Assembly (NCBI GenBank): GCA_949742185.1
Contig: CATJNN010000208.1
Span: forward strand, 1 to 41,279
DNA from: an uncultured Clostridia bacterium
GTDB taxonomy: Bacteria > Bacillota > Clostridia > UBA1381
DNA length: 41,279 nt
Reading direction: 5' to 3'
A program made the translations under genes and the position numbers. This document shows, piece by piece, positions 886 to 41,279 of the stretch; position 1 is the stretch's first letter; each line of letters opens with the position of its first letter. Under the pieces are notes generated by a model. It ran no database searches and had not been told where the DNA came from. It saw nothing but the letters and a program-made list of their open reading frames with translations.

Positions 886-919
886 CAGAGGGGATACGGC
901 TTATGCCGTATCCCCTCTG
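886..919. terminator. Bidirectional intrinsic terminator hairpin shared by the convergent tam and giant genes
   Basis: Perfect 15-bp inverted repeat CAGAGGGGATACGGC (886-900) / GCCGTATCCCCTCTG (905-919) with 4-nt loop TTAT. It is followed by TTGTTCTT on the + strand and, read on the - strand, by TTTTGGTTTTAAA. It lies 105 nt after the tam stop and 6 nt after the giant-gene stop. Confidence 0.8.
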
Positions 920-925
920 TTGTTC

Positions 926-15900: not shown

Positions 15901-18900
15901 TCTTAAGATTCTTAATTACATGACCCGCGCCGTCGAGCACACCCGTAAACGGCGTGTCCTCCGAACCCAAAGGCTCGAACGTGCCGGACATAACAATATC
16001 ATTCTTAAGCACATAATGACTTGACAGACTGTTCTTGATATTCTGCAGCTCATCCGCGTTTGTAATTTCAAACGGATGCTCGGCCGAACCGTCCGGACCT
16101 GTTTCTATTTCGCCAACGTCCGGATCCGTAGCCTTGCCGTCGCTTATCTGCAGCGTAGGATACTGACCCTGCTTTATAGTCCATACAGTATCAAAGTTCC
16201 ACTCGCTTCCAAACGTGCTTCTGTCAGCCAGCGCTGCTCTTGTAACCGAGCTGCTGCCTATAACCTGCGCTCCGTTTGTATTTGAGCTTACCGTGTTAAG
16301 CGGTAAAATACTATATGAGTTTTCAACCCTGCTGCCGTTTGTATTTGAATAAGCAATACCGCCCGCGGCGTTTGAACCTTCAGGCGTAAGCTTGCCCGCA
16401 TTATATGTGTTCTTCACAACGCCGTTATTATTCTGTGAAACGACGCCGCCTGCTTCTTCAGCCGTTATTTCAGCTTTATTATACGAATCTGAAACAGTTC
16501 CGTAGTTATACGCCGCTATTGACGCAGCGCGCGTCAGTCCCTTTATGCTTCCGGTTACAACCGCACAGCCTGAGATTACGCCATTCGAGAGGTTTTCTCC
16601 CGCAACAGCCGCCGCGGATCTTACAGTACCGGCAACGCTTATGTCCTCAAAGCGGACGTTTCGGATTGTGCCGTTGTTCGATGCGAACAGAGCTCCGTAT
16701 TGATTATTAACGCTGCCTGTTCCCTCTTTTATTGTAAGACCTTTAATTGTGTAGCCGTTGCCGCTGAAGATACCTGTGTATGACTGCGCCGACGCGCCGG
16801 AAGCCGCCGGTCTGCCTATAGGCGTCCAGTCGATTCCCGTCATGTCAATATCGTTCATAAGCGTATAGCTTGCGCTCATATTATTGCGTACATTGTCAAG
16901 GTCCGCCGGTGTTTCAATATGATACGGATTTTCCGGAGAACCGTCCGGTTCTGTCGGAGGCTCCGTCTCGCATCCCGCAGCGGGAGCTATGCTTTCATCC
17001 TCCGTGCCCTTCTCGGCTATAACCTTTGCCACGCCTGTATCGGAACTTTCCTTATTTACATACAACGTATATACAGCCGATTTCTCGCCAATCTCAACTA
17101 CTATGCTGAAGCTGTTAATCTCATTTTCCACAGATACTGAAGCGTTTCTTATAATAGCTCCGTTTGCGGAAGTCTGGCTTTCCGCTATGCTTGACGGATT
17201 ACCATCCTTAAACAGCGATATCTTAGCCGCTGCGGATACTGCAAGTATATCAAGCGTCGCGGTGCTGTCTGCTCTCGGAACAAACGTATAGTATACGCCG
17301 TTCGCGTCAGCTTTTACGGTGCGCTTATCCGTCTCGCTCTCTGAGCGGATAAGTACCGATGAAAGCATCAGCGCCGAATCCTGCTTCGTGATAGTAAGAT
17401 TTATCGTAAACGGAGTATCATACGGATATGTGTAAACCGAAAGCGGTATCACGGTTGTCTGTCCCGTAAGCTTCACGGTGTTTGTAACCTCATACGGAAC
17501 CGTCTCGCCGGATCCAATCTTAACCTTGGCAATCGGACTGTCCGCTTTAAGAGCTACAGACGCCTCCGAAGCATTCGGAGCAACTGTGAACGTGTAGCCG
17601 GTACTGTTTCTGACAGGCGTCTCTCCGTTCACGAGAACGCTTTCAATAACAGACGCTTTATTTACAATATACAGCTTATACGAAGCCTTGTCTGAACCTA
17701 TGGCAATCTCAGCCGTAAGCTCGGATACAGCCTGATCGGCGCTGTACATAATCTGAGCTTTGCCAGTGCCGCTGCCGAGCGCGGAACCGTCGGCATTTTT
17801 AATCGTAACTGACGCGGACGGATTATTAGCCGTAACCGTCAGTACATCTGCCGGAGCGTCGGGAGCGATTCTTAAGATATAAGCCTTGCTGTCAAAGTCG
17901 ACCGCCTTATTTGTCTCTGTCTGACCGAACGATACGTTCTTTACAGACAGGTCGCTGTCGGACTCATATCTTATAGTTACAGTATACGGTCCGCTCTTAG
18001 CCGTCGGAGTATTGACGTTCGCGTATGCCACGTCCGCTGAATAAACGTTAAACGTGAATACTGTCTCTCCGTCAGCCTTAAGCGCAAGATTTTCAAACGT
18101 ATCGCCGGAGCGTTTTCTCACACTGCCGTCTATGCCGTAGCCCGAAAGCTCTATAACGGACATATTTCCGTCCGCCGTAACCGTAAGGTTTACAGGCGAG
18201 AACTTGTTAACTATAATATTGTAGTTTGTCTGAGCCGGAGTGAGCGCAAACAACGATACGTTAACATTAGTCGTTGCTCCCGCAGCCGCCTGCGTTCCGT
18301 TTACATATACGTTTCTTACGTCTACATTTTCAAGGTCTCTGTAAACGTACAGCGTGTATTCCTGATATGCTATACCTGAGGACGATGTTATTCTGAATTT
18401 ATATTCGTTAACAACGCCACCTGCCACGCTGCCCAGCGTTCTTGTGAGCGTGAGCTCGCCGCTTTGCTTCTGTTCTGTTCCCGCGTCGTCGTTCATGGAA
18501 ATATCAGCGAAGCCGTGAGCCGCGCGGATAAGTATTTCAGCCGTATCTACGCCCGAGCCTACCGCAATCTCATAGATTGTCGGGTTGCCCGGTCTCGGAA
18601 TAGCCTCGATGCTGTTTACAATTACATTTCCTATATCCGAGCTTACGCTCTTTCTGTAGATCTCAGCCGTGTACGTCTTCTTAGCGTTCGGCGTAAGGGT
18701 GTCATTTACATACAGCTCTGATACCACAACAAACGTAACAGTCGTCTTTTCATTTGTTGAAAGCGGATAGCCGTTCTTTGTCCATACGCTGGACTGCGGA
18801 ATAACCTGTTTGCCGTCAACAGATATAATCTTAACAGTATCGTTTGCCGTTATGGTTATATCCGAGCTGAATTCTGACGCCGGTATCTGGAACACATAAA

Positions 18901-21900
18901 TTTCATTATTGTCGCCTATAGGCGAAGTGTTCACTTCTCCGCCGACCGCAACGCTGATAACTCCCAGATCGTCGCGCATACCTCTGAGCTGGATATCGTA
19001 ATGTACAGTCGTTATTCCGTCCTGAGCCAGTACGGTTACTCTGTACCACTCGTTCACGCCCGGAGCGAGACCGCCGTCGAGAATGAACTTCGCGGTTCCG
19101 TCTGAGCTGTCGGAAATTTCTATAAATCTCGCTTCTCTTCCGCCGCTTACATAGCTCTGACCCGCGCCGGTAATCTGCGCTATTCTTGTAATCTGAGCAT
19201 ACTTATTCTTCGGCGTCAGCTCAATAGACACGTCTCTTTCCGGTATATTCGCGTCGTATGTAACGGACAGACCTGAAATATTAACGTTATACTCAGCCGC
19301 AGTACCCTTTTCAGTTACTATCTTACTCAGACCCGCGTCTTTAGACTTCGTGCGCAGATACAGCTTATACGAAGCAAGGTCGCCTGTCGGAGCTTTAACC
19401 TCAATTACATACTTACCGCCGTTTGTAAGCTTGGTTATACCCGTGTTGTCTGTATAAACGTTATTCGAGCTCCATGCTCCGCCTATCCATACGCCGCCGT
19501 CGTTATAGTAGCCTACGCGCACTATAGCGTCAGCGTTTGCAGCGGTTACCTGAGGCTGAACTATCTCATTGTCGGAGCCTACGAAGAAGAGGTATACTTT
19601 TTCTTCATTCTCTGTTTCCTCGGTAGCGTTTATATAAGGAGTGTTCTCTATTCTTACAACGCTTTCAAGAGTTGTGTCGTCGCTCTTCTTTTCAATTACG
19701 AGCAGATAACCCTTAATTCCGTCATGATAAGCCTCCGTGCCGTTATGAGCCTGAACGTAAATGCGGTAATTGGTCGGATTTGCGGTTACGTCCATGCCCT
19801 CTTTTATGAAGACTGAAGCTGAAGCCGCGGTTACGTCGGTTCCCACGCTTACCTTAGCGTGTTTTTCAGAAGCGACAACCTTAATATCCGCCGCGTTGTT
19901 ATCCGAGCCGTCTTTCAGCTTTTCAGGAATAACAGCTCTGTATACGCCGTCGTCTCCTCTCTTAATCTCTGTTTCGAAATCATTTACATATACCTTTACG
20001 GATATATCGCCGCTCTTAGTCTTAAACGTGAGCGGATATTTCTTCACATAGCCTGACGATGAGGAAGCAAGCTCAATCGTGTACTTAAGCTCGCCCAAGC
20101 TTAATATGTTCTGCAGACTGAAGCTGTTATTCAGATAAGAATTGCCCGTTCCGCCGTATCTAGTGCTGTCATTTACAACAGAAACTTTCGCGTCTCCGTC
20201 AGTGTTTATCAATAGCTTAACATTCTCGGCGCTTACATACGCTACGTATCCGCCGTTGTCGTCTTTTTCAGCTGCAATATCGTTAACCTCAACTATGAGA
20301 TTCTTGTCAAGGTTCATATCCGCCGGCGTTACATATACGAGATACTTCCTCTCTGTTCCGTCCTGAGCCTTAACGGTCATCGGAAGAACAAAGGTCTCGT
20401 TAACGCCGTCGCCGTTATCGTCAACAGACGGATTCGTAACAACAAGAGACTTCCTGAGCACGCCTTTTACTGTATCCGAATAGCTGCTGCCGTTTAAGCT
20501 TGCCTGAGCTTTATTTGAGGAAAGCTTAATCTCAAGAGTTACGTTATACGCAGACTTGTTCGGATATACAGGATCTATCGGAATATATACCTGATAAATC
20601 TCATATTCCTCGCCCGTGCTTACGTCCGTGTATGCTTCCGGAACAGTGTCGGTGTTTTTATTATCCTCATCGTCCGGATTTGCAGTCACCTCAAGCACAG
20701 CCGCGTCGTTATCCTTCTTAACAAGCTTAAGTATATACGTCGCGTAGTCTGTGTCGGAAGCGCTCTTCTTCACATAAATCTTAACGATTGTTTCTCTGTC
20801 TTCGTTTGTAGCGCGGTAAAGCTCTGTTGTGAGCTCGGCCGCCGCCGCCGGGTTAGCCGCGTTATCCGCGGTCGCCGAAGCCCCGCCGCCGTCTATAGCG
20901 TAGCCTTCAATTTCTACTATGGAAGAGTTATTGGAAGCTATGGCGTTTACAATAGCCTGAACGCTGGCTGCGTCCACATAATACGTGAACGAGCCGTCGC
21001 TGTTTTCTATAACGTCGCCTTCGTTCGGTCCCACGCCGTGGCCGTCAACCTTAAGGATTAAAGCGTAGTCCTGCGGCAGTCTTTCAATGTAGAGAACCTC
21101 CTGCATAACCGGATTCGTATCCGTCTCGTTTACATACAGGTTCACATTAACAAGCGCAAAGTTATCTGTAAGCGGTATGCTTACGGACTCCGCCGCAGTT
21201 CCCTGAGTTCTCGTTCCGCCGTTTATTTCAATATACGCGCTGCCCACGGTAGACTTAACCTCTACATTTGCCGACGTCGCGTTAGGCAGAAGCTTCTTAT
21301 ATGTATATCTCGGTTCGGTCTCAGTCGGAGCGTCGGCTTCCTCGCCGTTTACCTTGATATAGCTTATTGACGGAGCAGTCGGGTCGCCCTTTATTGTGAG
21401 GGTGTGAGTTACCGGTCCTGTTACGCCGTCCTGCGCCATAACCTTAATAGTAACTACCACGTCGCCGTTCTGCAGATTCATGGTCGATATAATATCGCTG
21501 TTTATACCCGTCTGATACGATGTTCCCGACAGCTTGCTCACCTGAGCCAGCTCGTCTGCAGCCTTCATTTCAACCTGCGCGAACGTCATTGTATCAGGCA
21601 CCTGAACCGTCCACTTAGTCGGATCGGCCGGATCGGGCTTCGCGTAATACGAGCCTACCTTGATATATTCAAGCGACGTATCGTCTGAATCTTCGCGTAT
21701 AATGAGTATATATTCTTTTGTTGTGTACTCGTCAGCCGCCGTTACCGTGATGCGGAATCTGTTAATCTTGAGCGTATCTGACAGAGGAACTGCTTTCCAT
21801 GTTCCGCCGCCCGGAGCGCCCTGCTCGTTTTCATCGGCGCTGTCCGACTTAAGGTTGCCGTTGTCGTTGCCGTACTCATACTGATACGGCGACGTGCCCG

Positions 21901-24900
21901 GCTTAATCGTCATTGTCTCAAGTTTAACTCTCGCATTTGAATCCGCAGCCACAAGATTTGCGTCTATAGGCTTAACAAGCGGATTCTTAAGATACGTAGC
22001 CGTTCCGCTTATAATAGGTACATTCTCGCCCGCGCCCTGGCTTATAACATTTACCGTAAGGTCTGTATTTATCGCCACGCGCGTAATTCTGAGCGTATAC
22101 TCTGCGGTTGTTTTTCCGTCTGACGCGGTAACAACAATCGGTATATCCACAACAGAATTTGTGCCTAATGCAAGATGGTTAGACGTACCCGCGCCTGTAG
22201 CAGCGTCGAGAGTAAGGCTCACGCCTCTTACCATTATATCCGTTACCGAGCTGCTGGTCGGAACAACCGTAACAGCGCTGCCGGATACAGTGTTAGGTAT
22301 CTTAATCTCAAATACATTATCTACAGGACCCTTAGCCGTACGCGTTATCGTGCCGTTATATTCATATGTAACGTCAACGCGCATTACGGTTGCGTCCTTA
22401 TCCTTAGTCTGAACTCTGATGTAGTATGTGGTGACAATTCCCGTTTCAGACTTGATATAAACCGGAATATCTATGCCGTCGGCAAGAACTCCGCCCGCAA
22501 GGCTGTAGTTATTCACAGACAGCTCATATGTGCTGCTGTATGACGCGCCGTTCGGACCTGCAGGAGACGTTATGCTGTCAACAGCCGCAACAGCTCCCTT
22601 ATTTGCCGCCGCAATCTTAATGTTTATGCTCTTCGTGCCGTCGTCCACAGACAGTATGTAGCGGTCCGCGTTGCTGTCATACGGCAGCGGAGCCGTGCTT
22701 TCGGTGATAACTCCGGCGCTCGCCTTAATATATCCCATGCCGGTATCATCAGACTTAACCTCTATCTTTACCTTATAGATTTCTTCGCCGCCCGCCTCGG
22801 ATATAACCTTGATATATATATAATCGCCGGTGAGCGAGCCTGCCGCAAAGCTTATCTGACCTATGTGCGGCGTTGCTGCCGCGTTAATATGAGCGTTAAC
22901 GTATGTTCCTTCATTGCCCGTTGTAGATAACAGAACCTTAGCCGACGCGGATTTCGCGGTAGCTTTTATGTATATAGTCTGATTGTTATCTATATCCTCC
23001 TGATCGATACCTACGCGGTAATGATAGTCTTCTCCCGTAACCGCCGTTACATTATAGTAACTGTCAATACTGTTTACATTCTTGAACGCTTCAACAGAAG
23101 CAAGACCGTTATCATCAGAAGCATACTCGATAACGAGCTTATACTGTCTTGTTATCTTCTTGCCGTTCGCATCCAGATATATACCGTCCGGAGCGACAAC
23201 ATAAATTGTTGTTTCCGTCTTGGTCGCGTTCGGCGGTGCAAGAAGCTGTACGCCGTCAATCTTAATACCCTTGTATCTTTCCGCGTTATCAGGATTTGTA
23301 TCGTCGGCAGACGCCGGATTTACATAATCCGCCGGCTTATAATCGCTGTCCGCGCCGACGTTCGCATACGCGCCCTTGTCGTTCGGATAAATGATTATAG
23401 TCGCGCCGTCCGCGCTGTACGGTACTCTTACTGTGAACGTGCCGTTTGCAAACGTCGCCTGATTTACAACAGACGTTGTCTGACCTGTTACGCCGAACGG
23501 GATATTCGTATTATCAGCATCCTGCAGAGATACCGACGTGTCGTTTGAACGTTTTGTGACTTTTACTTTATATACAGCCTTTGTTCCGTCCTCGGCTTCC
23601 ACACTGATAAAGTAAGTTCTCGGATTCGTGTACAGAATCTGATATTCCTCTGTCTCGTCGGTGTTCTTAGCGCCGTCCGGAATTGTCTGGTTATAACTTG
23701 TGTAAATCTTCACCTTCGCGTTCTTGTCGGCTTTCACCTTAAAGATTCCGGTTGTGTTATCCTTGCCGTCTTCTGAACGCGGAAGCACAAACGTGTAACC
23801 CGTCTCGGCGGAAGGCGCGGTCAGCTCTGTTACCGCCCAGCCCGCCTCGGACGTAATCCATTTGTCGTCGGCCGGTTCCTTATCCTCATCGCCGTCGTTA
23901 TCAAACGCAATTTTAACCTCTGTGCTGCCCGACATCTTAACCACGCGCAGCTTATGCGTACGTGCAGGATAGCCGCTGTTCTTAGGCGTTACGGTAATAT
24001 CGTATTCCTGCTCGTCCTGATACATCTCGGTTACAAGAGCTGCCGTTCCTGTGCCGGATACCGTTATAGCCGTGCCAGCGCTGTCCTCGCCGTCAATCTT
24101 AACGCCTGCTCCGGACGCGCCGGACTGAGCCGCTTTTGCTATAACGTTCATATCCGTTATCTCTTTCGCGACCTTAGCTACGTACATGCCTGTTTCCATA
24201 TCATATACAGCCGTATATGTAGTAAACAGATTATTGTCCATAACAACAATGTTGTTAAGACGGGTATCGCTGTCGTCTGTGTATATTCTTACAATATATT
24301 TTCTTGTCTTAGCGCCGGAGGTTATCTGAACCTCAACGTCCTTATACGGAGCTGTCTGCGGGTCTGTGAAGCCTGAAATATCTATTTCATGCGCGCTCAC
24401 GCCGTCCTCAGCGTCAAACACGTCTATCTTAACCTTAGCTCCGGCTTCAACCGTCGCCGCCGTAAGCTTAACCTTCTTGGTTCCCGCCGCAACCGCGTAT
24501 TCATACATACCGTCGTAGCCTGACGTCTCCGCTTTTACGCGAGCGAGCTTCTGGCTGTCGGCATATATAACCGGATCCTCTTCGTCGGACATTCTGCGGA
24601 TATTAAGCGTGTAGCTTACGCCGTTAATGCCGTTTACGGAAAGCTGAATGCTTGCCGTGTCAAGGCTGCCCGTAAGAGCAAGGTTCTCGTAACGTCCCGT
24701 TGTCTGGAACGTCTGATAACCGCCTGTGGTGTTAACCGTATAATTTACGTTTGTAATATCTTCATTATCGATATTACCCTTTGTCAACAGGTCAACCACA
24801 TCGATTGTTTCAGGAATTATAACCTCGTAGGTAAACGGATCGTCTACTGTGTACGCCGTGTATATTTCAGCGTCTTTGCCTTCTTCATCCTTATGTATAA

Positions 24901-27900
24901 CCTGTATGGACGAAGGCGTTGTAGCCTCGGACTTCTTGTAGATATACAGCTTGTAGCCCTCAGGGTCTCCGCTTTCGGCAAATACTGTTACGCTTACCTC
25001 CTTAACGCGATCCGCTTTCTCAATTACAATGCTCTGAATATCGAAGTTCGCGTCGTGCTTGGACTGAGCGGCATTTTCTGCTCCGTCCTGATGGTCTACG
25101 TTTACTATCTTGCCGTCTACGCGTATCTCCGCCGTTCCGACAGCCTCCGCGCGCACGTAAATTGTACGCGGCTGGTTAGCGTCCTGAGCCGGATCGTCGT
25201 CGTCTATAATTACATACCAATCGTTTGTCTCGCCTATTTGTTTTGCTTCAAGAGCGGTAGCTGCGGGATAAGCGCCGTGGTCTTTTGTATAATCAACCGC
25301 AGACGCGTCGTTATCATAGAAGTCTACAACCTGAATATACTTGAGCGTCGCGTCTGTCGAACGCCACTTAACCGCAAGCTTATACTTGCCGTGGTACTCG
25401 TTCTTGTGCAGACCATTCTCATCCGGCGTACTGCTCTGGTCGCCGTCGTTATCGAAGTAGATATAATACGAATCCAATGCTCTTCCGCTTACCGGAACAT
25501 TCTTAAATTCATAGTATCCAACCATTCTTCCGGAGGTGATTTCCGTCTTTGTTCCCAGCTCGTTTCCGGCTTTATCGCAAAGCTTTATCTTGTCTCCTGT
25601 AGCAGCGCCCGGCTTATCGTTCGATACAAAACTCTTTACATATACCGTAGCTGTTGTTTCATTATCAGCAAGCTCAACATATACAGCGTATACGCCATCA
25701 AGACCTACAAGCTTATAAACCGGATTATCCGGATCCGTGTTGTCTATCTGAATCTCGTCGCTGTCAAGATAGCCTCGGTCATAAGCAGTCTTAGCCTCCT
25801 GATATTCAGCTCTCTTGTTGCTGCCGTCCTTATCCTTAACGGATATAGCCTCGGCTCTTATCGAGCCTATTTCCTTAATCTCAACATTAACCTTAACCTG
25901 AGCTCCCGTGAGCTTATCCGTCACAACAAGAACTACCTTGCCTACCGAAGCCCCGTACAGAACCGCGGCGTCGTATGTCTTGCTTGAGTCGTCAGGATCC
26001 TGAAGCGTCTTGATTGTTACAGACGCTATGCTGTTTTCAGCAACAACGCCGCCCGCGGTATTCATACCCGGATTATTTTCAATAACCTCAGGCTCCGAGC
26101 CGTCTTCCGGCCATGTCTCAAACGACCATGTGTACAATGACGGATCTGTTGAAGCGGCGTCGTCAAATACATTAAATCTTTCAAACGATACCTCAAGAGT
26201 CTCCTCTTTGCCCTCCATTGTCGTTATAGACGGAGGCGAAACCTTAAAGCTTCTGTCGGATACCATTACAAAGTAGTTTTTATCCGCCTCAGCGTCACTC
26301 GTCCACTTGCTGCCGTTATCGTTATTTCCGAGCTGACCGTACATATTGCTTCCGGCAGCCCATACGAACCCGTCGTTCATAATCATATATGAAGACGAAC
26401 CGCCCGCGCTTACAGCTATAGCCGAGCCCATATCTTTCCATATAAGCGTGCTGCCCGACTCATCGTCGTCGGCAAACTTTTTGTCTATGTGCTCAATCTT
26501 TGTAGCCTTGCTTGTGTGGCTTGCGGCAGTGTACAGACCAAGACGTCCGTTTGAGGAAGCTCCCCATACATAAACGTTGCCGTCTGAATCAATCGCCATA
26601 TTATGAGCCGCGCCCACAGACACGTCAACGATATGCGGAGCCGTTCCGTCGGCAAACTGCAGCAGCGAAGCGGCTGTCGGGTCGGAAATAGTTCCTCCCA
26701 TTGTGCCGTTTCCGAGCTGACCGTAATCGTTAGTACCCCATGCAATCACTTTGCCGTTGTTAAGAAGCGCGATTACATGCGATTTTCCGTCATATGTCTT
26801 TATAACCTGACCGTCATAGCCGCCTACGCTTATCTGTACGGGAGTCGGGAAGTTCTTATCAGCAGAAGCGCTTATCTGATGATTATTGTTATCGCCCCAT
26901 CCCCATACTGTTCCGTCGTAGCGAACCGCTTTTGTGCTGTCGCCGCCGGCGCCTATGCTTATACCTATTACCTTATTTATACCCTGAACCTTTACAGGCG
27001 ATAATCTGCTTGTCTGCGAAGCCATGCCTATACCAAGCTGACCTGCGCCGTTAAAGCCCGACGTATAGAGATCGCCCGTCTTTGTCATAAACGTTGTGTG
27101 TCTTGTTCCGAGCGATACTCTTGATACCGCCGTCAAATCTGTAACCTGAACAGGCGAATACTGATTCTTTGTGTTGCCCAGACCAAGCTGTCCGCTGCTG
27201 TTCGCTCCCCATACATATACCTTTCCGTCTGAGGATACAGCCGCAGAGTGGTTTTCTCCAGCATATACGGACGTTATGTTCTTACCGTCAAGCAGGGTTA
27301 TCTGAACCGGCTTATCAACGAAGTCTGAAACCGCGCTGCCTACGCCGAGCTGTCCGTAGTTATTGCGTCCCCAAGCCCATACTGTGCCGTCTGCCTTGAG
27401 AACTATAACATGGCTCTGACCCGCCGCAATCATCGGCGCGTTCTCGTAATCGTCAGATATAACCGTTACCGTGCATATCGAGGTTATGCCGCCCTTTGTA
27501 ACAACAATCTGCGTTATACCCTCGCTCTCGCCTGTGATCGTACCCGTTCCGTCAACGCTTGCGATAGCCGCGTTTATAGAACTGAATGAAATAGAGTCGC
27601 TGTTTGTGTAGTTCTGATACAAGTTGAACTTATCTCCGGAATATGTAAACAGAGTATGCGTAGCGCCTTTCTTAACTGTAACGTCATATTCACGGATAAG
27701 CTGCTGTCTTTCGCCGATTTTAACCGGAACTGTGCTGTTTGTATCGTTAGGATCTATGCTTGCGTTGCCCTGTGAATAATCGCCGAAGCCGTATACAAAG
27801 CCGTCGCTGTCAAATACCACAGTGTAACCGGCGCCTGCCGACACTCCTGCCGCCTTTACGCCGTTCTTATTAATATTTGTATTCGGAACCGCCTGAGGCG

Positions 27901-30900
27901 CGTCGTCAGTTGTGCCTATTCCAAGCTGACCCGCGCTGTTTGCTCCGGTTACATAAAGCTTGCCGTCCTTGTCAATGAACATTGTGTAGCCATCGCCGGC
28001 AGAAAGTTCAGATACGGACGGAACCGCTCTGTCTGCAGGCATCTGCGCAGGCACTGACGTCTGCGTAAGCTCCGGTACTCCAAACTGACCGTGGTCGTTT
28101 GTGCCCGCAACATATATATTCTTGCTGTAGGTAAGCAGCATTGTATGGCTGCTTCCCGCGCCGACTTCAACTATCGGCTCTGTTACGCTCACTTCTTTAG
28201 GCGTATACTCGTTCGCCGCGCTGTTTGCCGCGCCGAGCTGTCCGCCCGCATTGCTTCCTGCAGCATACGCTTTTCCGTTTGCAAGCAGGTATACGCTGTG
28301 ACTGTCGCCCGCGAATACGCGCGAAACATTGCCTATTCCCACTCTTGCAGGTTTATTATATTTATTCTGCTGGTCTTCAGCGCCGAGCTGTCCGCGGTCG
28401 TTAAGACCCCAAGCCCACGCTTCGCCGTTTTTGTCAACAGCAAGGCTTGTGCCGTTGCCCGCAGCTATTGCGGTAACATTCTTCATATCCGCGTCGGATA
28501 CTTTTACAAAGACAAGGCTTTCCGCGCCGGCGCTCGGCTGACCGAGCTGTCCGTGGTTATTCTGTCCCACAGCCCAAACGCTTCCGTCCTCCGCAAGCGC
28601 GAGCGCATGACTGAATCCTGCCGCGACGTCTGTAAATTTAACCTTAACGCCGCTTTCGGAAGGAGTTACCTCAACAGGCTCGTCGCTGTGAACCCTGTCG
28701 CCTGTGCCGAGCTCGCCGTTATTGTTAACGCCCCATGCCCAAAGCGTGCCGTCAAACTTAACAGCAAGCGCATGCGTGCCGTTTGTAACGACCTTAGGAT
28801 CAAACACACCGTTCATTCCCGCTATAACAGGAACAACAACAACTCTTAAATATCCGCTCTTGAGCGTATACTTATCCTCGCTTACGCGGATATAAGCAGT
28901 TCCCGCGGTTTTAGCAGTTATAATTCCGCGGTCTGAGTCACTGTTTCCGACCGTTGCCGCCGGCTCGTTATTTGACTGATATTTAAACTCGTTTGTGTTT
29001 GTCGTATTGTTATATACGTTAAACGGTATAAATCCGCCCTGTATTTCAGCTGTCTGACCCTCTGCAAGGTAGATTGTGCCGTAAACGGGCTCCCAGACTC
29101 CGTTTACTTTTCTGGATATAACCATCTCGTTGCCGCCGACAACAACGGACGTATATCTGTCCATAAGTGTGCCGTCGCCGAGCTGTCCGTTATTATTGCG
29201 TCCAGACATCCAGACGTTACCGTTATCCTGAATGCTCATGAACGAATCATAACCGTTGCCTATAGATGTATTTGTGGTTACGCCTGTAGCTCTCGCCGGC
29301 TCAGCCTTATATGCTGCGGATGAATCGCCTATGCTAAGCTGACCATAGTTATTGCGTCCCCATGTGTATACGTTGCCGGCGCTGTCCATAGCCGAAGACG
29401 TATATCGTCCCGCGCCGATGTCTTTAATTCTGCTGAGATAGTCGCCGTCAACATCCTCCTGAACGCCCTTAACAACGCGTACCGGAGCCGCCGCGGAAGC
29501 CGGCTGATTGCTGCCTGTGCCAAGCTGACCATAGTTATTCTGTCCCACAGCCCAAACGTTTCCGTTAGCGTCGAGAGCAAGAACATGGTCTTCGCCCGCC
29601 GCTATCTTAATAATTGCAATCTCTCTGCCGTTCTCATCTTTATAACCTATAACCTTTTCAGGCGCGCCTGTTATATTATCCGCTATCTTCCATACAGTAC
29701 CGTCGTTTCTGAGCATGTACTGTCCGCTGATATCGGCCGCGTTTGTAAGCGAGCCAATCCGGGTTACAACGGAGCTGTCTCCAAGCTTTTCGCCGCCCGC
29801 GTACACATCGCCGTTTTCAGTTATTACAAATACCGTGTTATGCCATGAAGCGACCTTAGACGCTTTTATCGCAGTACCGAACGTTATTCCGCCGGCCATT
29901 TTAACTTCATAGGTTCCGGCAATTCCGTCGGTAATAAGACCTGTGACAAGCTGACCATGGTCGTTAGCTCCCCATGAGTACACTTTGCCGCCTTCAGTAA
30001 CAGCGTAGGTCGCTCTCTCGCCTGCCGCTATGTATACGACGGACGGCTGATTATCCGCCGGCTCGTTCGTATCAAATATTACCTGGCCTATACTGCCGCT
30101 GTCAGCGCGTCCAAGCTGCTTGGCAGCGTCGCTGCCCCATGTCCACACAGTGCCGTCAGACTTAAGCGCCGCTGTATGGTTCTCTCCCATAACAACCATC
30201 GGATAAGCCTTTCCGCCTCTTACAACCACAGTAATGTAGCCCTCGGCTCCCGAATCTGTCTTGGTGAGCTTAAGCACCGCCGTACCCGGCTGAACGCCGT
30301 AAATTGCTGTCCCGTTCGACGAAGATACCTTGAGGAATCTCTCGTTCATAGATGTGAGAGTATAGTCGTTTGTCGCCGTACCGTTGAGAAGAAGGTTAAG
30401 TCCTTCCGACTCGTTTACCGTAAGGGTATTGCTTGCTTTAACATCAAGAGCGGAAGCCTCGCTGCTGTGCAGAGGTATATCAATATATACGGTCTGCGGA
30501 ACTATTGAAAGCTGTTTTCTTCCTGCCATAACAGGTACATACGAATCAGACGTATCCTCGTTTCCGAGCTGACCGTCTTCATTTTTACCGAAGCTCCATA
30601 CAAATCCGTCATTCTTAATGCTTACAGTATGGCTCGCGCCCGCTTCAACCGCTATTATATTTTCATAGCCGCTGTGCGAAAGCTTTTTCGGTTTGTTTAT
30701 TTCTGTGTTTATAAGCTCGCTTCCCGCTTTGCCGAACGCCGCGCTTCCCCATGTATACACGTTTCCGTTTGTATCCACGGCAACACTGTAACGGTCGCCC
30801 GCCGAAATGAGCTTAATATTATTAAATACGTCGCCGTCTTCAGTCTGGGTTATCTGAGCGGGGTCTGTTCTTCCCGCTTTATCAAAGTTACCAAGCTGAC

Positions 30901-33900
30901 CGCGCGTGTTATCGCCCCATGACCATACAACACCGTTCATATCCAGAGCAAGCGTATGGTTTCCGCCCGCCTGATTATATGTGTCCGCGTCGTACTCTCC
31001 GCTCGACGACAGGCGCGCAATCTGCGGCAGACCCGTTTTCTTCTCGGCAATCGGATTTGCGTTTGTAATTACAGACCAGACTGTAGCGTCAGCCTTAAGA
31101 GCGTAGCCGCCTGAAATATCGACTACCTTGCCTAAAAGACCGAGTTTAACCGGAACGCTTCCATAGTCTTTGCCGAACGCATACGCGTTTCCTTCAGCGT
31201 CGATAACAAAGCTGTTGTTATCGGAGGCGGTTATGCGCGCCGCCGCAAAGTCTGTATTAATCTTAACAGGCGAAAGCTGCGAAGGAGCCGCCGCGCTTGT
31301 GAGCTGACCGTTTCTGTTATCGCCCCATACCCACACGTCGCCCGCGGAATCTATTGCCAGCGCATACTCGTCGCTTGCCGCAATGGCTGTTATATATTTA
31401 GAGCTGTCGTCAAAGCTGAAGCTTATCTTCTTAGGCGAAATATCGCGCTTGCCGTTTCCGTCGCCAAGCTGACCGCGTCCGTTAGCGCCCCATGTATAAA
31501 CCGTGCCCGCTTTATCAAGAGCAACCGTGAAGTTGCTTCCGGAAGCAATCTGAATCTTCGCCTTGTTTGAAGCGTCGTTTTTGATTACGGTGATATAGCT
31601 CATAGCCGTAACCGTGCTGCCCGAACCGTCGTTAGCGGTGACAACAATTACCGTGTCGCCCTCCGCGTTAGCCGTAATAAGACCGCTGCTGTTTACGGAA
31701 GCAACGCCCGTATCAAGAGACGTCCATGTAAGAGCTACAGTATTGTCGTCTTCCTTTATAACGTTAAGAGCTCTCTTAAACTGTGCGGATACCTGCTCTG
31801 TTGTGCCCGCAGTCATTGTTCTGTGATATTTATCAAGTTTTATATAGTTTTCTCCGGTCTTAACAGGAACTTCCTTAAGCGTCACCGACAAATCACCGAG
31901 CTGACCGCTGCTGTTCGCGCCCCAGCTCCATACCTGACCGTCCTCGGTCGCGCCGCCGGAATTGCCCGCGCCCGCGCCGACTGTAAGCCAGCCCTTGCCA
32001 GCCTGAGGAGACGCTATCTCGGCAGCCGTTGAAATCACGCCGCCGCCCGAAGCTATATTTGTGAGCTGATTAGTAGCGTTGCTGCCCCAGCCGTAGAGCT
32101 TTCCATCGTTTGACAGAGCCATAAGCTGAGTTGTTATACGCTTGCCGCTGTCTTCAGCCACAGATTTTCCTATAACTACCGATTTAATGTTTGCAAGCGG
32201 AAGATTCTTATTTGTACCCGAATCGCGCTGCGGTCCCAATACTACAACCGGTTCACGCGCCAGAGTAACGTCCGGAGCCATGTAGTCCAGATTTGCAATC
32301 TGTCTGCTTGTATTATCGCCCCATACGTACACATTGCCGTCTTTTGTTACAGCCGCCGCGTTATACGCGCCCGCAGCTACAGACGATATGTTTTCTATTG
32401 AGCTTACGGATACTATTGAAGCGCTGTATTCATCCTCCGAGCCGCTGCCCAGCTGGCCGCGCGTGTTGTCTCCCACGCTCCAGAGGCTGCCGTCGGCGAG
32501 CATAATAAGCGTCGTATTCGCGCCTGCCGCCGCAGTTACAGCGTTATTTACATAGCCGTTTCCGCCCACGCCGGACATTACCGCCGGCATGAAGTTTTGA
32601 CTGTTGTTCGGAGCGCCGTGTCCGAGCTGGCCGCGCGTATTGCTTCCCCATGTATATATGTTTCCGTTATTGTCTATTGCAGCGCTGTGCATTGCGCCCG
32701 CCGCAATATCCGCTATTATCTCGTTATTCGCCGCGTCCGCAAGCGTTGCAATCTTAGACGGCATATTTATAACGCCGCTCTGAACCGCGCTTGCGCCGAG
32801 CTGACCGTAACGGTTATTACCCCACGCGTATACCTCGCCGTATTCCGTGAGCGCGAGAACAAACTGATCGCCTACGGCTATCTTTGTTATTCTTTCAACC
32901 TGATTGCCGGCCGCGTCTTTTTCAACCGCCTGCGGAGTAACGGACATACCGCCTGTTGTGCCCATGCCAAGCTGACCTGAGGAGTTGTCTCCCCATGTCC
33001 AAACTTTACCGTCCTGCGTAAGCGCAGCTCCGAAGCCGTTTCCGTAGAGAACCTGCGGATTTGTGAAGCCGTTTGTTACAATAACACGGCATGCCACGCT
33101 TCTGCCCGTTGTTAAATCTTTTAATATGATATATGTCTCGCCGATACCTGTAGGCGTAACGTTAGCTACTGTCTGATCGCCTGAGTTAACCAGAGCGACA
33201 GTCGCAACGTTATCGTTCATGCTTGACCAGTCAAGCTGAGCGTTTGTGCCTGCATTTGTGAACAGTGAGAATGTATTTGAGCCCACTGTCGCCGTAATCT
33301 TTGTATCTGTATTAAGCGATGTGTCGTCGAGCCTTAACCGCATTGTCTTTTTATCGATAACCACAGGCGCGCTGCCGGCAATTACCGGATATGTGCTGCT
33401 CTGCGTTGTGCCATTACCGAACTGACCGCCGTTATTATTACCCCACGCGAACACGCGTCCCTGAGTATTTGCCGCGAACGTGTGCAGAGCGTATGGATTT
33501 GCGCCGTTTGTGTACGCGCTCACGAGCATCATTTCATCTATAGGATTGTTGGATGTGTTGGAGCGCATAACTTTAACCGGACTGTCTTTACGCGCAGTCG
33601 AGCCGTCGCCGAGGTTACCGTTCGGGTTAAAGCCCCAAGCCCAGATTGTTCCGTCCTGAGCAAGAGCTTCTGTATAGCGGAAGCCTGCCGTAACTGAAGC
33701 TATACCTGAAAGCGGTTTTGATGTATCCGGATTTACAGCCGCTGTCGGATAAACATTGGCGTTATTGCCGGTGGTCGTGCCGCTGCCGAACGCTCCGTTG
33801 CCGTTATAGCCTACAGACATTACTCTGTCAATGAACATATCCGTAGTAGACGGATCAACAGAAGATGTTCCGAGACTGTAATCATATTCGTATACATTGA

Positions 33901-36900
33901 CCGTAGCCCGGTAATCATCTATAGAAACATGAGTTATACCGCGCAGAACTTCACCGGCCGACTTATACATCAGCTTAACTGTACCCTTATTTCCGGTAGA
34001 GCCGTCGCCTACTATACCGTAGCCGTTATAGCCCGCCGTCATAACCGTCGCGTCCTTATTAAGAACCGCAACGTTATACATGCCTACAGCCGCGTCAAAC
34101 GCGTCGTTTACGCCGCTCATCTTAACAGGCGTGAGCTTGTTTGCTCTGTCGCTGCCCGTGCTGAGCTGAGCGTAGCCGTTATAGCCCCAGCCGTAAGCCG
34201 TGCCGCTTTCCGTTATAGCCACTGCCGTATTCGGACCCGCTGCTATTCTTACTATTCTGCCTGTCTTGCCTGTTACGTCTCCGAGTTCGCCGCTTCCGTC
34301 AGGACCTTTAACCTTTACAGGCTCATGATTTTCTGTAACGTTTGCTATACCTATACCAAGCTCGCCGCGGCTGTTAAGACCCCACGCGTATACAGTGCCG
34401 TCTTTTGACAGCGCGTACGCCGTCGCCTGACCTGCGGCTATATCCACGATATCCTTCATAACCGCACCCGAAGCTGTAATCTGAACCGGCTCCGTGGCGT
34501 TCGGAGTCATAGCCGGATCTTCGCCGAGCTGACCGTAGCTGTTATCTCCCCAAGCCCATACTGTGCCGTCCGCTTTAAGAGCGAGATTAAACATCGCGCC
34601 CGAAGCTATTTTCGGGAATACTGAACCCGAAACGTTTATTCCGTTGGCCCCCGCCGAATATTCAGCAGGAAGAACCTCAACGTCGCAAAGCGCGTAAAGA
34701 CCTGTCACCGCGTCATAGAATATAAGTCTTGCCGTGCCGACGCCCTTAAACTGAACTCTGTGCGTAATATGGTCGACAACCTCTACAACCTTCGGATTTG
34801 TGGATTCCATACGAACCATAACGTCGCCCTGACCGCTGCTGCTGCCGAACACGTTAAATCCGCTTGTTGCACGAACGTTAAATGTTGTGGAATTATAAGC
34901 GCTTACATATGTGGTTATCTTTCTCGGAACACCCGCAAGCTGGCTTATACCTGCCGTTGCCGGATATGGCTGGTCGTCGAACATACCGTTTCCGATTTGT
35001 CCGCTGCCGCCCAGACCCCATACATACACGTCGCCGCGTCGGTCTATAGATGCCGAATGATTACCTGTGCCGGACGTGCTTACGGTAATCATATCCTTAG
35101 CTTCGTTGGCTGAATCAAGCATAACGTTTGTTACGCTGCCTGAAGCGTTTGATATGTATCCGTTTCCAAGCTCGCCCTTGCTGTTGCGTCCCGCGCCGAG
35201 TATTTCGCCGAACAGCGGGTCGCCTGTGCCGAAGTGACTGCTGCTTACAAGCGCCAGAGCGCTGTATCCTGCGGATACTTCAACTATATCCTTATCCGAA
35301 AGAGCGTCTATTGCAACCGGAAGCGTTCCCGCGCTTGTCGGAGCCGCGCCCATCTGACCGTTTGCATTATTACCCCAGCCGTATACTCTGTTATTTTCCG
35401 TAACAGCGTACGCAGACTTATAGCCCGCCGCTATAGCTACGGCTGTTTTGCTGCCGAGGTCAACCTCGGAAATTGTTTGAACGCTGCTTGTGCCGTGGCT
35501 GTTTAACGCGTTTTCGCCGCGCGCAAGCACTCTGCCGTCTATGGTGAGCATATAGTTCGTCGAGCAGTCGCCTGCCGCTATATCCTTAACGCCTGCTATA
35601 TCCATATATACAGGCTCGTATATTATTTTTGCGGCAGACTGTGTAAGCTGAGCCTTATGATTGCTTCCCCAGCCGTATACCGCGCCGTTTGACGAAAGCG
35701 CCATAACATTCGGGAACTCGCCGCCCGCAGCCGCAATATCTTTTATCTTTATATTGTTATTTGTAAAGTATCCTACTTTTGTCGGAGTGTCTGTTCTTGC
35801 ACCGAACGCCGCGCCGAGACCAAGCTGACCGTTATTGTTGGCGCCCCATGTATACACTTCGTTATCCACGGTTACGGCCGCGACAAAGTTTGCGCCCGCG
35901 CTTATTCTTACAACAGACGGCAGCCCATCAACCTTATGCGGAGCCGTTTCCATGCTGCCTGTATAGCCCATGCCGAGCTGACCGTAGCTGTTATCGCCCC
36001 ATGTCCACACCGTTCCGTCCGCTTTAAGAACAGCTGTGAAATTGCTTCCCGTTTCAACCTGCGGGAAGGTTACAAACGTAATCGGATTATTATTCTCGTC
36101 TTTTCTGTTTGTATCATCCGGAATCACATACACCTTAACGTAAACAACGTCTTTTTCCGTTCCGTCTGTTAATGTTATTTCAAGATATGTCTGACCCACT
36201 TCGTCGCTGCTTGCGGTTATATTTGTTCCGTTTATAACAGCAAGCCCTTTATTCCATATATTATATGAAGGCTGCGCTGAAGCCGCTGTATCACGGATAA
36301 TGTTAAACGCAGGGCGAACCTTATCCAGACCAAGAGAAGCGAGACTGACGGTCTTGCCCTGACGCAGCAGTATGCTGTCCGGAACCGAACCGATGCTCAT
36401 CTTACCCGCTTTATCAGCGTAGTTAATGCTGCTGCCGGCATCCTTTATACCAAGCTGATACGCCTCGTTAGAGCCTGCGGCCCAGACAAAACCGTTTTTA
36501 TCCGCAAACAGCGTATGCGAGCCGCCTACTCCGTACTGAGCCGACGAAACTGACGCTGAAGCTGTCATGAGACCGCCGCGGCCGGAAGCCATAGCAATAA
36601 TATCTCTTTCAAACGCCATGCCGTTTTTATCAACCGGCGACGCTGTAATATCCGAAGCTGTAGAGTTTGTGTTTGTCTTATTAGCGCGCTGACCGAATTC
36701 ACCTGCGCCGGAGATAAGCGGTTTACCCGTATTATCTATAGAATATACCGACGAGCCGCCGCCGATTGCCACTGTATTTGTTCTGAACGGCATAATCTCA
36801 GGCTTTGTGAGTGTATTTCCGCTTGAAAGCGCATACGACACATTCGAGCCCCACGCATATGTTGTGCCTGTGATTGAGCTGTCGGGCGTCTGATCAGCGT

Positions 36901-39900
36901 CGTCCGTAAGAGCGTATGCAACCGCCATACCGTTCTGGTTGCCGGCTCCTATCGACATAACGCGCTGCGGAAGCGGAACCTGAACAGGCGTGCCCGTATT
37001 ATCCGCCGGACGCGCGTAGCCGTTTCCGTATTCATAACTTAAATTCTTTCCGACAGCCCACACTCCTCCGCTTATGCGAAGCGCAAACGCCGTAGCGCCG
37101 TGACCCGCCGTGATATCCGAAGCGTCCTTAATAACGGTACCCACCGGTGTGAGTATCGCTGTCTGAGCGCTTGCTTCTACCTGTTTATATGAGTTATTAC
37201 CCCAAGCGTATACCGTGCCTGTTTTATCGAGCGCCCATGCGAAGCCTTCAGCGTTTGAAAGTCCGCCCGCCGCGATTGCAACGATATCCTCAAGGAATGT
37301 CTTTGTTGTATCAATTATATTCTGCGCGCCTTTGAGCACTTTGGCAGGCACGCTTAAATTATCTGTGTTGTCCTGACCGAGCTGACCCTGGTCGCCGCGG
37401 CCCCATGCCCATACCTTGCCGTCTTTATCGAGAGCAAGAGCAAAGTCGCCGTTTGCGGCTACTTTAATTATATTAGAAAGTCCCTGAACCTGAACAGGAT
37501 ATTCCGACGCGCCGCCGAATTCTCCGTTACCGAGCTGACCATAATCGTTAGCGCCCCACGCCCATACTGTACCGTCCGCTTTAAGAGCCAGACTGAAGCG
37601 TCTGCCTGCCGCAAGCTGCGGGAACGCAACGCTGCCGCCGGCGCCTTTGCCTACCGCCGCGTCGTTCGGGCGCACTTCAACTTTAACGACAGATGTGAGT
37701 CTGCTGTCGCCCTGCCAGTTTACAATAAGATATGTCGTGCCTACGCCTGTCGCTCTGATTCTTCCCGTTGTCTTATCCAGAACTTCAACAACGTTATTCT
37801 GCATATCAAATGTGCGCCAGAATACAGGCACTGTCTGTGACGAAGACGATGAGTTAAATACGTTGAACGCGTCCACCGTAGGAGCGTCAAGCGTTATCGT
37901 CTCTCCGTCATACATTGAATACAGGTACTTCGGCAGGCTGAGATAAGACTCGCCGACGCGCACAGGCGTATACCTGTCGTCCTTTTCGCCGTTGCCGAGC
38001 TTAGGTCCTCTGCCGTAGCCTGTCGCCCAAACAGAGCCGCCGTCCTTAATAAAGAACGAGGTTTTTCCCTGAATTGCAGGCGTATTATAGCCCTGCGTTG
38101 AAATCTGTATAACGTCTGTTATAGGAGCCGTCTTATCGCTGCCTGAATCGCCCGCCAGCACGCTGCCGTATGTTCCTGCAAGAACTCCTGTATCTCCCCG
38201 GCCAAGCTCTGGCGAGTTCGCCGTAGCGCCCACAGATATTACAGAACCGTCCGCTTTAAGAGCCATGATCGAGCTGTCCGCCGACGTTACTACTGTCGGA
38301 ACAGCGTTTCCGTCCGCGTCCGCGGTATCAAAATTAGTATCCCGCGTCGGAACCGGAACGGTTGTATTCACAACATAACCCCATGAATAAACTTTTCCTT
38401 CGGTTGTTATAGCCTGGATATTGCCCCAGCCCTGAACCGCGTTTACTATAAATTCGTCTTCAATGCTCATTAGAACAGGCGCTGAAAGCGTAGTCACCGA
38501 GCTTCCGCCCTCATTATATATACTTCCGCCCCATACCATAAGCTTTCCGTCTGCGCGTATACCGCTCTGACCGAGACCGCCCATAGTAAGACCCTTAAGG
38601 TTTCCAAGCGCGGCAATTTTTTCCGTCAGATTTACAGGCGCTGTAATCTGCGGCGACTTATCGGACGGATCAAGCTTGCCCTGACGCGCCGCAGTGTTAT
38701 TACTGCCCGCGGCGGTAGCCACAAGGTTTGAGCCGAACGCGTAAACGTCGCTGTTCTGCGTAAGAACAATCGAGCTTGACTGCGGATTGCGGTACGCCGT
38801 GTAGTCGTTTGTATTCATAGGCGAGGAGCTTGCGTCCACGTCTACCGCCTTCTCTATTCCCGCAACAACACGCGCAAGATTTATTATATTAGTATTGCCC
38901 GCCGAGCCGTTTCCAAGCTCGCCGTCAAAGCCTATGCCCCATGTCCAGACCGTTCCGTCTGCACGAAGCGCGATAAAGTGGTTTTGTCCCGCCGCAATCT
39001 TAACGAAATCGTTCATCGGCATCTGGGCTGTTCCGTATATTCCATCGCTGTTTTCATCTCCGTTTTCAAGATGTTTAGCCTGAACAGGAGAAGCCTCGGG
39101 AGCCATACCCGTTGTGTCTGTTGTTCCCTGCGAGAGCTGACCATAGCTGTTATCGCCCCATGTCCATACAGTACCGTCCGCCTTCAGAGCCGCCCCGCTA
39201 TATTTGCCCGCGACAACCTGAGGATAAGCTATAAATCCTGATGAAGCCGGCACAACCTGAATCTTAACGCTTCCTGTGTTGCCTTTTTCATCTTTAATAA
39301 TTATATATGTAACGCCCGGATTCTTCGCAGTTATAACGCCCGTATTTGAAACGGACGCAACGTCGTCGTTAAACGACGTCCATGTATACTGATCCGGAGT
39401 ATATGTGGATTCTTTCCACACGTTAAAGCCCGCGACAGCCATAAGATGCTGTCTGCTTATATCCAGCGTGTCGCCCGACTGAAGCGCGGTCATTATATGC
39501 TTTCCGTCCTCGCGCACTATTGTGTCGTCGAAGATTTTAACAGTCTCATATATGCTTCCGCCGCGCACAAGAAGCGCGTCAACCACTTCGATATGGCGTC
39601 CGCCGTATTCTGAAACAACCTTAACAGGCGAATCCATATCCGCCGACGCCTCGTTGCCGAGCTTATACGTCTGTCCGTAGCCCGCGGAATACACCGAACC
39701 GTCGTAGCTTATAAGGTGCGACGTCACAACCTGCGGAATGTTGCCTGAATCATTTCCGCGCGACATTGTGCTGTACATTATATTCTTAATATATCCGTTA
39801 TCGTCCTTATTGCCGTCTTCTCCCGCTTCGCCCGCGACAACGTTTCCTTTTCTGACGGTACTGTCGCCGCCGAACGCCCCCGCGATAATGCTGTTGCCGG

Positions 39901-41279: not shown

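Follow-up and report, generated by a model that had tools for sequence, protein, structure and literature searches.

Giant gene of the window and its limits

The stretch of DNA analysed in this study (41,279 nucleotides of contig CATJNN010000208.1 from assembly GCA_949742185.1 of an uncultured Clostridia bacterium), hereafter referred to as the window, carries a single giant open reading frame (ORF) on its minus strand. Counted from its first ATG (ORF 41242..926), this ORF encodes 13,438 amino acids (aa) and ends with a stop codon at positions 926-928. The predicted protein begins with a tandem array of ten modules (25,874-41,242, minus strand); in each of them a Big_2-like beta-sandwich precedes a seven-bladed RCC1-like propeller, giving about 70 blades in total. 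The array is followed by a long stalk of cadherin-like repeats with a GLUG insert and by a C-terminal region with a dockerin-type loop. The preliminary description of this DNA had taken the array for the complete object. In fact, the protein has at least 13.4 thousand aa (kaa) and the array forms its N-terminal third, corresponding to the first ~37% of the part encoded in the window, or to ~42% of the full protein, provided that the part upstream of the window also contains propellers.

Stop codons are also absent from the twelve codons between the window edge and the first ATG (41243-41279: TIHEGTLTIGGG-M...). Because the frame is open as far as position 41279, the window truncates the array, and the count of ten propellers, which covers the in-window part of the protein, is a lower bound. 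In the JGI sequence Ga0434952_110381 (3300038382; 54,319 bp), matched via the neighbouring methyltransferase gene, the giant gene is called at 14,487 aa, which places ~1,037 residues beyond the window. In a complete relative, P0121 (see below), a signal of ~70 aa is followed by a propeller, a Big_2, a second propeller and a second Big_2. By analogy, the missing N-terminal part probably comprises a signal and two more propellers. An exact search of metagenome contigs with 40 nt of the window edge gave no match, and protein-guided scans of genome, viral and metagenome contigs yielded only generic RCC1 proteins (23-44% identity). The listing of homologous proteins contained none longer than 1,076 aa, and the window protein itself was absent among those listed.

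The propeller array

The first 5,009 residues were cut into ten pieces at the positions given in the preliminary description and scanned with Pfam, the RCC1-like families tested being PF00415, PF13540 and PF25390. All ten modules matched PF25390 (RCC1-like domain), with E values from 2e-36 to 6e-89; eight of them passed the 150-bit cutoff of this family, and modules 1 and 2 scored 126-133 bits. Matches to RCC1 (61-212 bits; cutoff 21.7) and RCC1_2 (97-184 bits; cutoff 22) were likewise obtained for every module. We also built a hidden Markov model (HMM) of the single blade from the protein itself and iterated it on the same sequence. This model identified 69 blades, all located at aa 97-4983, and detected none elsewhere in the in-window protein at E<0.1. 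Each module contains seven blades, with the exception of module 3, in which six HMM matches are accompanied by an 85-aa gap. The ten-module alignment, which has a seven-blade consensus overall, revealed in this gap a degenerate sixth blade ('YSIDNTGKPLISGAGEFGQ'), bringing the total to 70. The first blades begin at positions 40954, 39217, 37615, 36058, 34609, 33052, 31549, 30196, 28792 and 27430, in agreement with the approximate positions proposed earlier (~40.9 to 27.4 kb). The Pfam matches, the blade HMM and the alignments thus bear out the earlier proposal of ten Big_2 plus propeller modules in one polypeptide, with seven blades each.

A structural model of module 10 was generated with AlphaFold2, using the ten modules as the alignment. 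The model obtained a predicted local distance difference test score (pLDDT) of 85.6 and a predicted template modelling score (pTM) of 0.87. It comprises a beta-sandwich (residues 1-86) followed by 7 x 4 strands (27 strands and a closing bridge according to DSSP). A Foldseek comparison with the PDB placed UVR8, RPGR, HERC2 and RCC1 as the best matches, with E 8e-33 and a template modelling score (TM) of 0.88 for UVR8, and E 3e-26 for human RCC1 (1a12). The model of module 1, the most divergent of the ten, is weaker (pLDDT 64, pTM 0.76): it has seven blades, but blade 6 is of low confidence and three long insertions are poorly defined. It nevertheless superposes on the entire seven-bladed UVR8 (TM 0.82, E 1e-23). 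The propeller fold is upheld by these HMM and AlphaFold2 checks, and the structural identity of the modules (Big_2-like domain plus seven-bladed RCC1-like propeller) is secure.

The spacers, of 95-115 aa, precede each propeller, and an eleventh is located after propeller 10; all eleven are mutually alignable. Only three exceed the gathering threshold of Pfam Big_2 (PF02368, 22.8 bits), with 25.8, 32.0 and 27.5 bits; two others are sub-threshold (16.8-19 bits) and the remaining ones have no match. A profile of the 11 spacers, however, matches solved Big_2-type domains, including those of a phage short tail fibre (7.5e-9), a Hoc-like protein and the S-layer protein Sap, as well as LigA/LigB, intimin and 2mog ('Bacterial Ig-like domain, group 2'). 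The spacers of modules 1 and 10 form a beta-sandwich in the AlphaFold2 models. The Big_2 signature reported earlier in front of each propeller therefore stands as far as beta-sandwich homology is concerned, on the strength of the profile, although with Pfam alone it is recognised in three of the eleven spacers.

Divergence between the modules

The ten propellers of the window are 23-35% identical in pairwise comparisons, with invariance confined to framework residues (Gly, Trp, Pro and hydrophobic ones). This agrees with the suggestion, made in the preliminary description, of old and divergent duplications. At the DNA level, the only repeats are blade-motif stretches of 30-95 nt with 60-88% identity, the longest of which (95 nt) reaches at most 75%.

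As a proxy for mapping the top face of the propellers, we assigned positions to strand and loop classes according to the DSSP string of the module 10 model. Between paralogous modules, the identity amounts to 31% in the strands, 28% in both the A-B and the C-D loops, 39.5% in the B-C hairpins and 14% in the D-A loops. The corresponding values between orthologous modules are 41%, 35%, 35%, 39% and 21%. The propeller surfaces do differ from module to module, as had been proposed: loops are 14-28% identical between modules, compared with 31% for the strands. Identical top faces, named in advance as the observation that would speak against diversified surfaces, were not found by this DSSP-based proxy, since the loops are more divergent than the strands.

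Relatives and orthology of individual modules

When 1.84 billion representative proteins were screened with a profile derived from the ten modules, 257,236 matches were obtained. Blades were counted with our own HMMs in the best 150 of these, which are multi-propeller proteins with lengths of 1.5-7.2 kaa. Sixteen of these 150 have at least 63 blades (at least nine propellers), the maximum being 88 blades (~12.6 propellers), and three or more Big_2-like spacers are present in 23. The earlier remark that a run of this many propellers is unusual is thus not sustained; one complete relative has 11 modules, and this class of proteins has already been described (bioRxiv 10.1101/2023.11.21.568195).

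The complete relative P0121 (7,235 aa) has a basic-hydrophobic, signal-like start, 11 propellers and 11 Big_2-like spacers, followed by cadherin-like repeats and, at its C-terminal end, CarboxypepD_reg, Dockerin_1 (29.6 bits) and Peptidase_M23 (88.6 bits). The same domain order was found in P0125, P0131, P0132, P0134, P0140 and P0142. Most of these relatives, with the exception of P0140, possess the basic-hydrophobic N-terminal segment. P0125 shares the C-terminal motifs of P0121, and P0134 stops at the dockerin. The genes of the relatives are chromosomal: that of P0140 lies beside rpoB/rpoC, and that of P0142 beside POR and minD/E, where a second RCC1 gene (7,436 aa) immediately precedes it. 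The named relatives come from a 'Clostridia bacterium' metagenome-assembled genome (MAG) and, in the case of the fragment P0122, from Hominilimicola sp. (family Oscillospiraceae).

Each propeller of the window was compared by BLAST with those of the relatives, and reciprocal best hits were scored. Modules 5-10 correspond one-to-one, and in order, to six consecutive propellers of the fragment P0152 (6/6 reciprocal best hits; 137-252 bits, 28-41% identity), the next-best module scoring 100-146 bits. Modules 2-8 match P0126 in order, as reciprocal best hits except for module 6, which is a one-way best hit. Modules 2-3 match the last complete modules of P0122, which has about nine propellers upstream of this point. 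Among the distant complete relatives, conservation is highest for module 9 (180-197 bits against P0121, P0125, P0132, P0134 and P0142); its counterpart is a late propeller in each of them, and the penultimate one in P0121. This colinear, one-to-one orthology indicates that the array is old and that its units have been individually retained, rather than recently amplified or homogenised. It is also compatible, as far as sequence comparison goes, with distinct roles of the individual modules.

In the genome of one relative (locus L049, positions 1-25513), two giant Big_2/RCC1 genes, encoding proteins of 7,436 aa and 5,170 aa, are arranged head to tail, which indicates that the family also expands by whole-gene duplication. 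The region downstream of the P0125 gene (locus L047, 23559-32761) contains many small ORFs without a family assignment, as well as genes for a SIMPL-domain protein and an Amidase_3.

Stalk, GLUG insert and C-terminal end

Past aa 5,123, the Pfam matches are limited to the cadherin-like beta-sandwich PF12733 and a near-threshold GLUG motif. The last piece scanned (aa 10,901-13,438; 2,538 aa) contains 11 copies of PF12733 (E 2e-64). An HMM iterated from the repeats themselves revealed ~58 cadherin-like units with a period of 110-115 aa at aa 5,350-13,045. These stalk repeats (2108-25873, minus strand), which account for two thirds of the protein, mostly end in the motif 'Y.L.I.R/K' and are mostly below Pfam detection. 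The insert in the middle of the stalk is composed of two repeats of ~300 aa, each starting with '...PY.I......L........Y.L..DI...'; a sequence search of the PDB with the GLUG region gave no match.

The C-terminal region, which is similar to the CarboxypepD_reg and dockerin end of the relatives, contains, in order, (i) a CarboxypepD_reg-like sandwich, (ii) a first EF-hand-like loop, (iii) ~185 aa of acidic Ser/Glu/Asp/Pro low-complexity sequence and (iv) a second loop, 'DVNGDGLIDTRD'. The latter corresponds to half of Dockerin_1 (14.7-19.6 bits; cutoff 22.9), and the first repeat, located ~185 aa away, is degenerate. Relatives such as P0121 run on into an M23 peptidase after their dockerin end, and this domain is absent from the window protein: neither M23 nor any other recognisable hydrolase domain was detected in the Pfam and NCBIfam scans of its pieces. 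The NCBIfam scan, performed on five pieces, gave nothing useful. The coordinates of all these features are presented in Table 1.

Table 1. Predicted features of the window, listed in the direction of translation of the giant ORF
Feature	Residues (aa)	Position	Strand	Evidence and remarks
Single giant ORF		926..41279	-	ATG 41242, stop 926-928; frame open to the window edge; 5'-truncated by the window
Big_2-like 1	1-96	40955..41242	-	Spacer alignment; Pfam Big_2 16.8 bits, sub-threshold; AlphaFold2 beta-sandwich
Propeller 1	97-542	39617..40954	-	PF25390 E 2.7e-38; seven blades (5 firm and 2 weak HMM matches), large insertions; AlphaFold2 pLDDT 64
Big_2-like 2	569-675	39218..39538	-	Pfam Big_2 25.8 bits, above cutoff
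Propeller 2	676-1096	37955..39217	-	PF25390 E 2e-36; 7 blade matches
Big_2-like 3	1097-1209	37616..37954	-	Spacer alignment, 11-spacer profile
Propeller 3	1210-1612	36407..37615	-	PF25390 E 3e-52; 6 HMM blades and degenerate sixth; reciprocal best hits to P0126 and P0122 modules
Big_2-like 4	1613-1728	36059..36406	-	Spacer alignment, 11-spacer profile
Propeller 4	1729-2097	34952..36058	-	PF25390 E 2e-62; 7 blades
Big_2-like 5	2098-2211	34610..34951	-	Spacer alignment, 11-spacer profile
Propeller 5	2212-2622	33377..34609	-	PF25390 E 7e-63; 7 blades
Big_2-like 6	2623-2730	33053..33376	-	Spacer alignment, 11-spacer profile
Propeller 6	2731-3129	31856..33052	-	PF25390 E 1e-70; 7 blades
Big_2-like 7	3130-3231	31550..31855	-	Pfam Big_2 32 bits, above cutoff
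Propeller 7	3232-3573	30524..31549	-	PF25390 E 2e-62; 7 blades
Big_2-like 8	3574-3682	30197..30523	-	Spacer alignment, 11-spacer profile
Propeller 8	3683-4035	29138..30196	-	PF25390 E 3e-56; 7 blades
Big_2-like 9	4036-4150	28793..29137	-	Pfam Big_2 19 bits, sub-threshold
Propeller 9	4151-4509	27716..28792	-	PF25390 E 3e-86; 7 blades; reciprocal best hit to P0121 module 10, 196 bits
Big_2-like 10	4510-4604	27431..27715	-	Pfam Big_2 27.5 bits, above cutoff; AlphaFold2 beta-sandwich
Propeller 10	4605-4983	26294..27430	-	PF25390 E 6e-89; AlphaFold2 pLDDT 85.6; UVR8 E 8e-33, TM 0.88
Big_2-like 11	4984-5123	25874..26293	-	Spacer alignment; closes the array
Stalk part 1		17054..25873	-	Tandem cadherin-like beta-sandwich repeats, period ~110-115 aa; PF12733, own iterated HMM
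GLUG insert	8064-8684	15191..17053	-	Two GLUG-motif-type repeats; Pfam Glug 19.9 bits, just below cutoff
Stalk part 2		2108..15190	-	Cadherin-like beta-sandwich repeats; PF12733, own iterated HMM
C-terminal region		929..2107	-	CarboxypepD_reg-like sandwich, EF-hand-like loop, acidic low-complexity sequence, dockerin-type loop
Hairpin		884..921	.	Perfect 17-bp stem, then T-run; directly after the giant-gene stop, between two convergent genes

Possible function of the giant protein

It is moderately probable that the product of the giant gene is an extracellular protein resembling fibrillar adhesins. This interpretation is based on the putative export signal of the relatives, the long Ig-like stalk, the dockerin-type end and the presence of divergent domains of an interaction type. 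The protein would be exported, its C-terminal dockerin-like end would attach it to the cell surface, and the Ig-like repeats would form a stalk measuring some hundreds of nanometres. Together with their Ig-like spacers, the divergent propellers would then constitute a distal multi-module interaction region, which may bind surface molecules of the host, of food particles or of other cells, each propeller offering a different loop surface. The RCC1-type giant proteins of Oscillospiraceae have been interpreted as extracellular, and giant proteins in general as related to adhesion (bioRxiv 10.1101/2023.11.21.568195). Big_2 is listed among the stalk domains of fibrillar adhesins (Monzon et al. 2021, PMC8286594). 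A more far-reaching proposal, according to which every propeller has its own ligand specificity kept by selection, so that the protein would be a multi-specific adhesin with a module order conserved across gut Clostridia and with module 9 as a universally retained core binder, is rather unlikely.

Several observations weigh against an adhesin-like role. No ligand-binding site, pocket, binding or lectin motif, or known adhesive domain was identified in the window protein, and RCC1 is found 0 times in the survey of fibrillar adhesins (PMC8286594). The multivalent binding head with possibly ten ligand specificities, suggested in the preliminary description, is purely an inference. The N-terminus, together with any signal peptide, falls beyond the window edge. 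The Dockerin_1 score stays under the Pfam cutoff, and the motif is interrupted by the ~185 aa of acidic low-complexity sequence. Conservation is weak in the most variable loops even between orthologous modules (21%), which fits fast drift equally well as specific binding. The polarity of the protein is also uncertain: were the N-terminal hydrophobic segment of the relatives an uncleaved anchor, the propellers would be proximal to the cell and the C-terminus distal.

The weak conservation of the D-A loops (21% between orthologous modules), the restriction of conserved positions to framework residues and the repetitive, stalk-like nature of the remainder of the protein are all consistent with a different interpretation, in which the propellers are passive structural beads that provide length, bulk or a protective non-specific coat, without specific ligands. 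We regard this as unlikely, because module order and identity are preserved one-to-one even though the proteins now share 27-41% identity, and module 9 is still recognisable in distant relatives, whereas a pure spacer would be expected to tolerate the loss, duplication and homogenisation of its units.

The C-terminal ends of the relatives raise the question of a link with the cell wall. Peptidase_M23 is a family of peptidoglycan endopeptidases, and it terminates relatives of the same architecture (88.6 bits in P0121, with the same C-terminal motifs in P0125); moreover, an Amidase_3 gene is located near that of P0125, and the literature on giant genes ties giant proteins to cell-wall degradation. 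The propellers might accordingly recognise envelope polymers and deliver or position a hydrolase, the whole protein being a long-reach device that targets the wall of other cells or of the producer itself. Such a role is quite improbable for the window protein, which lacks M23 and any other recognisable hydrolase domain; other relatives, e.g. P0134, likewise stop at the dockerin, and no toxin or immunity genes were seen, the neighbours being only a helix-turn-helix (HTH) protein and a methyltransferase.

A receptor-binding fibre of a phage or prophage was also considered, given that Big_2 and RCC1 domains both occur in phage proteins and that the neighbouring HTH_3 protein has a weak Phage_CI_repr match. 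This origin is very improbable and was rejected: the phage matches are generic (26-33% identity; 26-41% for viral contigs), the relatives occupy ordinary chromosomal settings (rpoB/rpoC; POR and minD/E) and no phage structural genes were seen. Finally, although the window comes from short-read metagenome data and misassembly is a common risk with giant repetitive genes, the chance that the long ORF is an assembly artefact or a repeat-made chimera is close to negligible and this explanation was likewise rejected, since modules of 23-35% identity without long DNA repeats (at most 95 nt, at up to 75% identity) make repeat-driven misassembly unlikely, the frame is open over 40.3 kb, colinear relatives exist in independent assemblies and a strong predicted terminator follows the stop codon.

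Comparison with known systems

The closest counterparts of the window protein in the literature are the RCC1-type giant proteins of Oscillospiraceae from gut metagenomes (West-Roberts et al. 2023, bioRxiv 10.1101/2023.11.21.568195). Like the window protein, they combine giant size with a large number of seven-bladed RCC1 propellers in tandem; they stem from Clostridia, mostly from gut samples, and an extracellular location has been predicted for them. The closest named relative of the window protein comes from Hominilimicola, a member of the same family. They have been described as one repeating domain over their full length, whereas in the window protein the propellers alternate with Big_2 spacers, and there are no blades past aa 4983, the following 8,455 aa being cadherin-like, GLUG and dockerin-like.

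The similarity to the database family represented by P0121 (P0121, P0125, P0131, P0132, P0134, P0140 and P0142, with the fragments P0152, P0126 and P0122) extends to individual modules, which have orthologues in the same order in the window protein. This family has a common plan: a signal-like N-terminus, 6-11 units of Big_2-like domain plus RCC1 propeller, cadherin-like repeats, a CarboxypepD_reg-like domain and a dockerin. The window protein differs in being approximately twice as long, with ~58 stalk repeats as opposed to fewer than 10 (same model), and in having a GLUG insert, a split and degenerate dockerin, and no M23 peptidase. Dockerin-bearing (cohesin-binding) proteins are expected to have two Ca-binding repeats and a Dockerin_1 score above 22.9 bits; this score is exceeded at the homologous site of P0121 (29.6 bits), whereas the window protein, in which the second repeat alone is matched, stays below it.

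The window protein is therefore a member of an already populated, functionally uncharacterised family and opens no new category. What is new is a length about double that of the relatives listed, a far longer cadherin-like stalk, the GLUG insert, the split dockerin-like end and the module-by-module orthology. Extracellular RCC1-like propellers are very common in bacteria; 257,236 representative proteins were matched with the module profile alone, and in this analysis we came across no case with a known ligand. In gut Clostridia, the window protein and its relatives rank among the largest proteins, and they probably influence the attachment of these uncultured organisms to the host, food particles and other microbes. 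The orthology of the modules offers a practical handle: single well-folded propellers (modules 9 and 10) can be screened, and orthologous modules can be compared for selected faces.

With eukaryotic RCC1-like domains (RLDs; RCC1, UVR8, RPGR and HERC1/HERC2), the modules share the seven-bladed fold (TM 0.74-0.89, 23-29% identity), and HERC2 also resembles the window protein in carrying several RLDs in one chain (the structures of the first, second and third RLDs have been solved). The eukaryotic proteins are intracellular and have at most a few RLDs, whereas the window protein has at least ten propellers in tandem, which are probably extracellular. The likeness concerns the fold only, and nothing in the window protein suggests a Ran guanine nucleotide exchange factor or an ultraviolet-B function. 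To our knowledge, there is no Ran in bacteria, and the former activity is therefore not expected. BLIP-II of Streptomyces is likewise seven-bladed and related to the RCC1 superfamily, and it was recovered as a weak structural match of the module 1 model (3qi0_A; E 5e-10, TM 0.62). BLIP-II differs, however, in its much smaller size and shorter blades and in having one propeller only; UVR8 and RCC1 give far stronger matches, and the window protein shows no sign of beta-lactamase binding.

Anchors known from fibrillar adhesins include LPXTG motifs and retention modules of the type I secretion system. The would-be anchor of the window protein is a dockerin-like motif, and no LPXTG motif was found in the sequence of its C-terminus. 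Fibrillar adhesins are very long extracellular proteins in which a tandem Ig-like stalk projects a binding region (Monzon et al. 2021, PMC8286594), and such a stalk is present in the window protein, in the form of ~58 cadherin-like beta-sandwich repeats; RCC1 is not among the adhesive domains catalogued in that survey.

Neighbouring genes and other sequence features

The neighbours of the giant gene are limited to the gene of the HTH protein and a convergent gene (17-781) encoding an S-adenosylmethionine (SAM)-dependent methyltransferase of 254 aa, which is 71% identical to a methyltransferase of a Clostridia MAG. The contig itself is unclassified, and a scan of the GTDB representatives gave no close match to it. 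The hairpin at 884-921 is likely to act as a terminator of the giant gene, because its T-run is located on the minus strand, i.e. that of the giant gene; in the scan it was also scored on the plus strand.

The G+C content of positions 1-2000 of the window (methyltransferase gene and intergenic region) is 0.41, compared with 0.46-0.53 across the giant gene, with a peak of 0.51-0.53 in its propeller part. This contrast may reflect a Gly/Ala/Thr-rich composition or a different origin. The giant gene also contains antisense ORFs of up to 489 aa, e.g. at 12668-14137 and 24893-25987 (both on the plus strand), which are most likely by-products of its codon composition and not genes.

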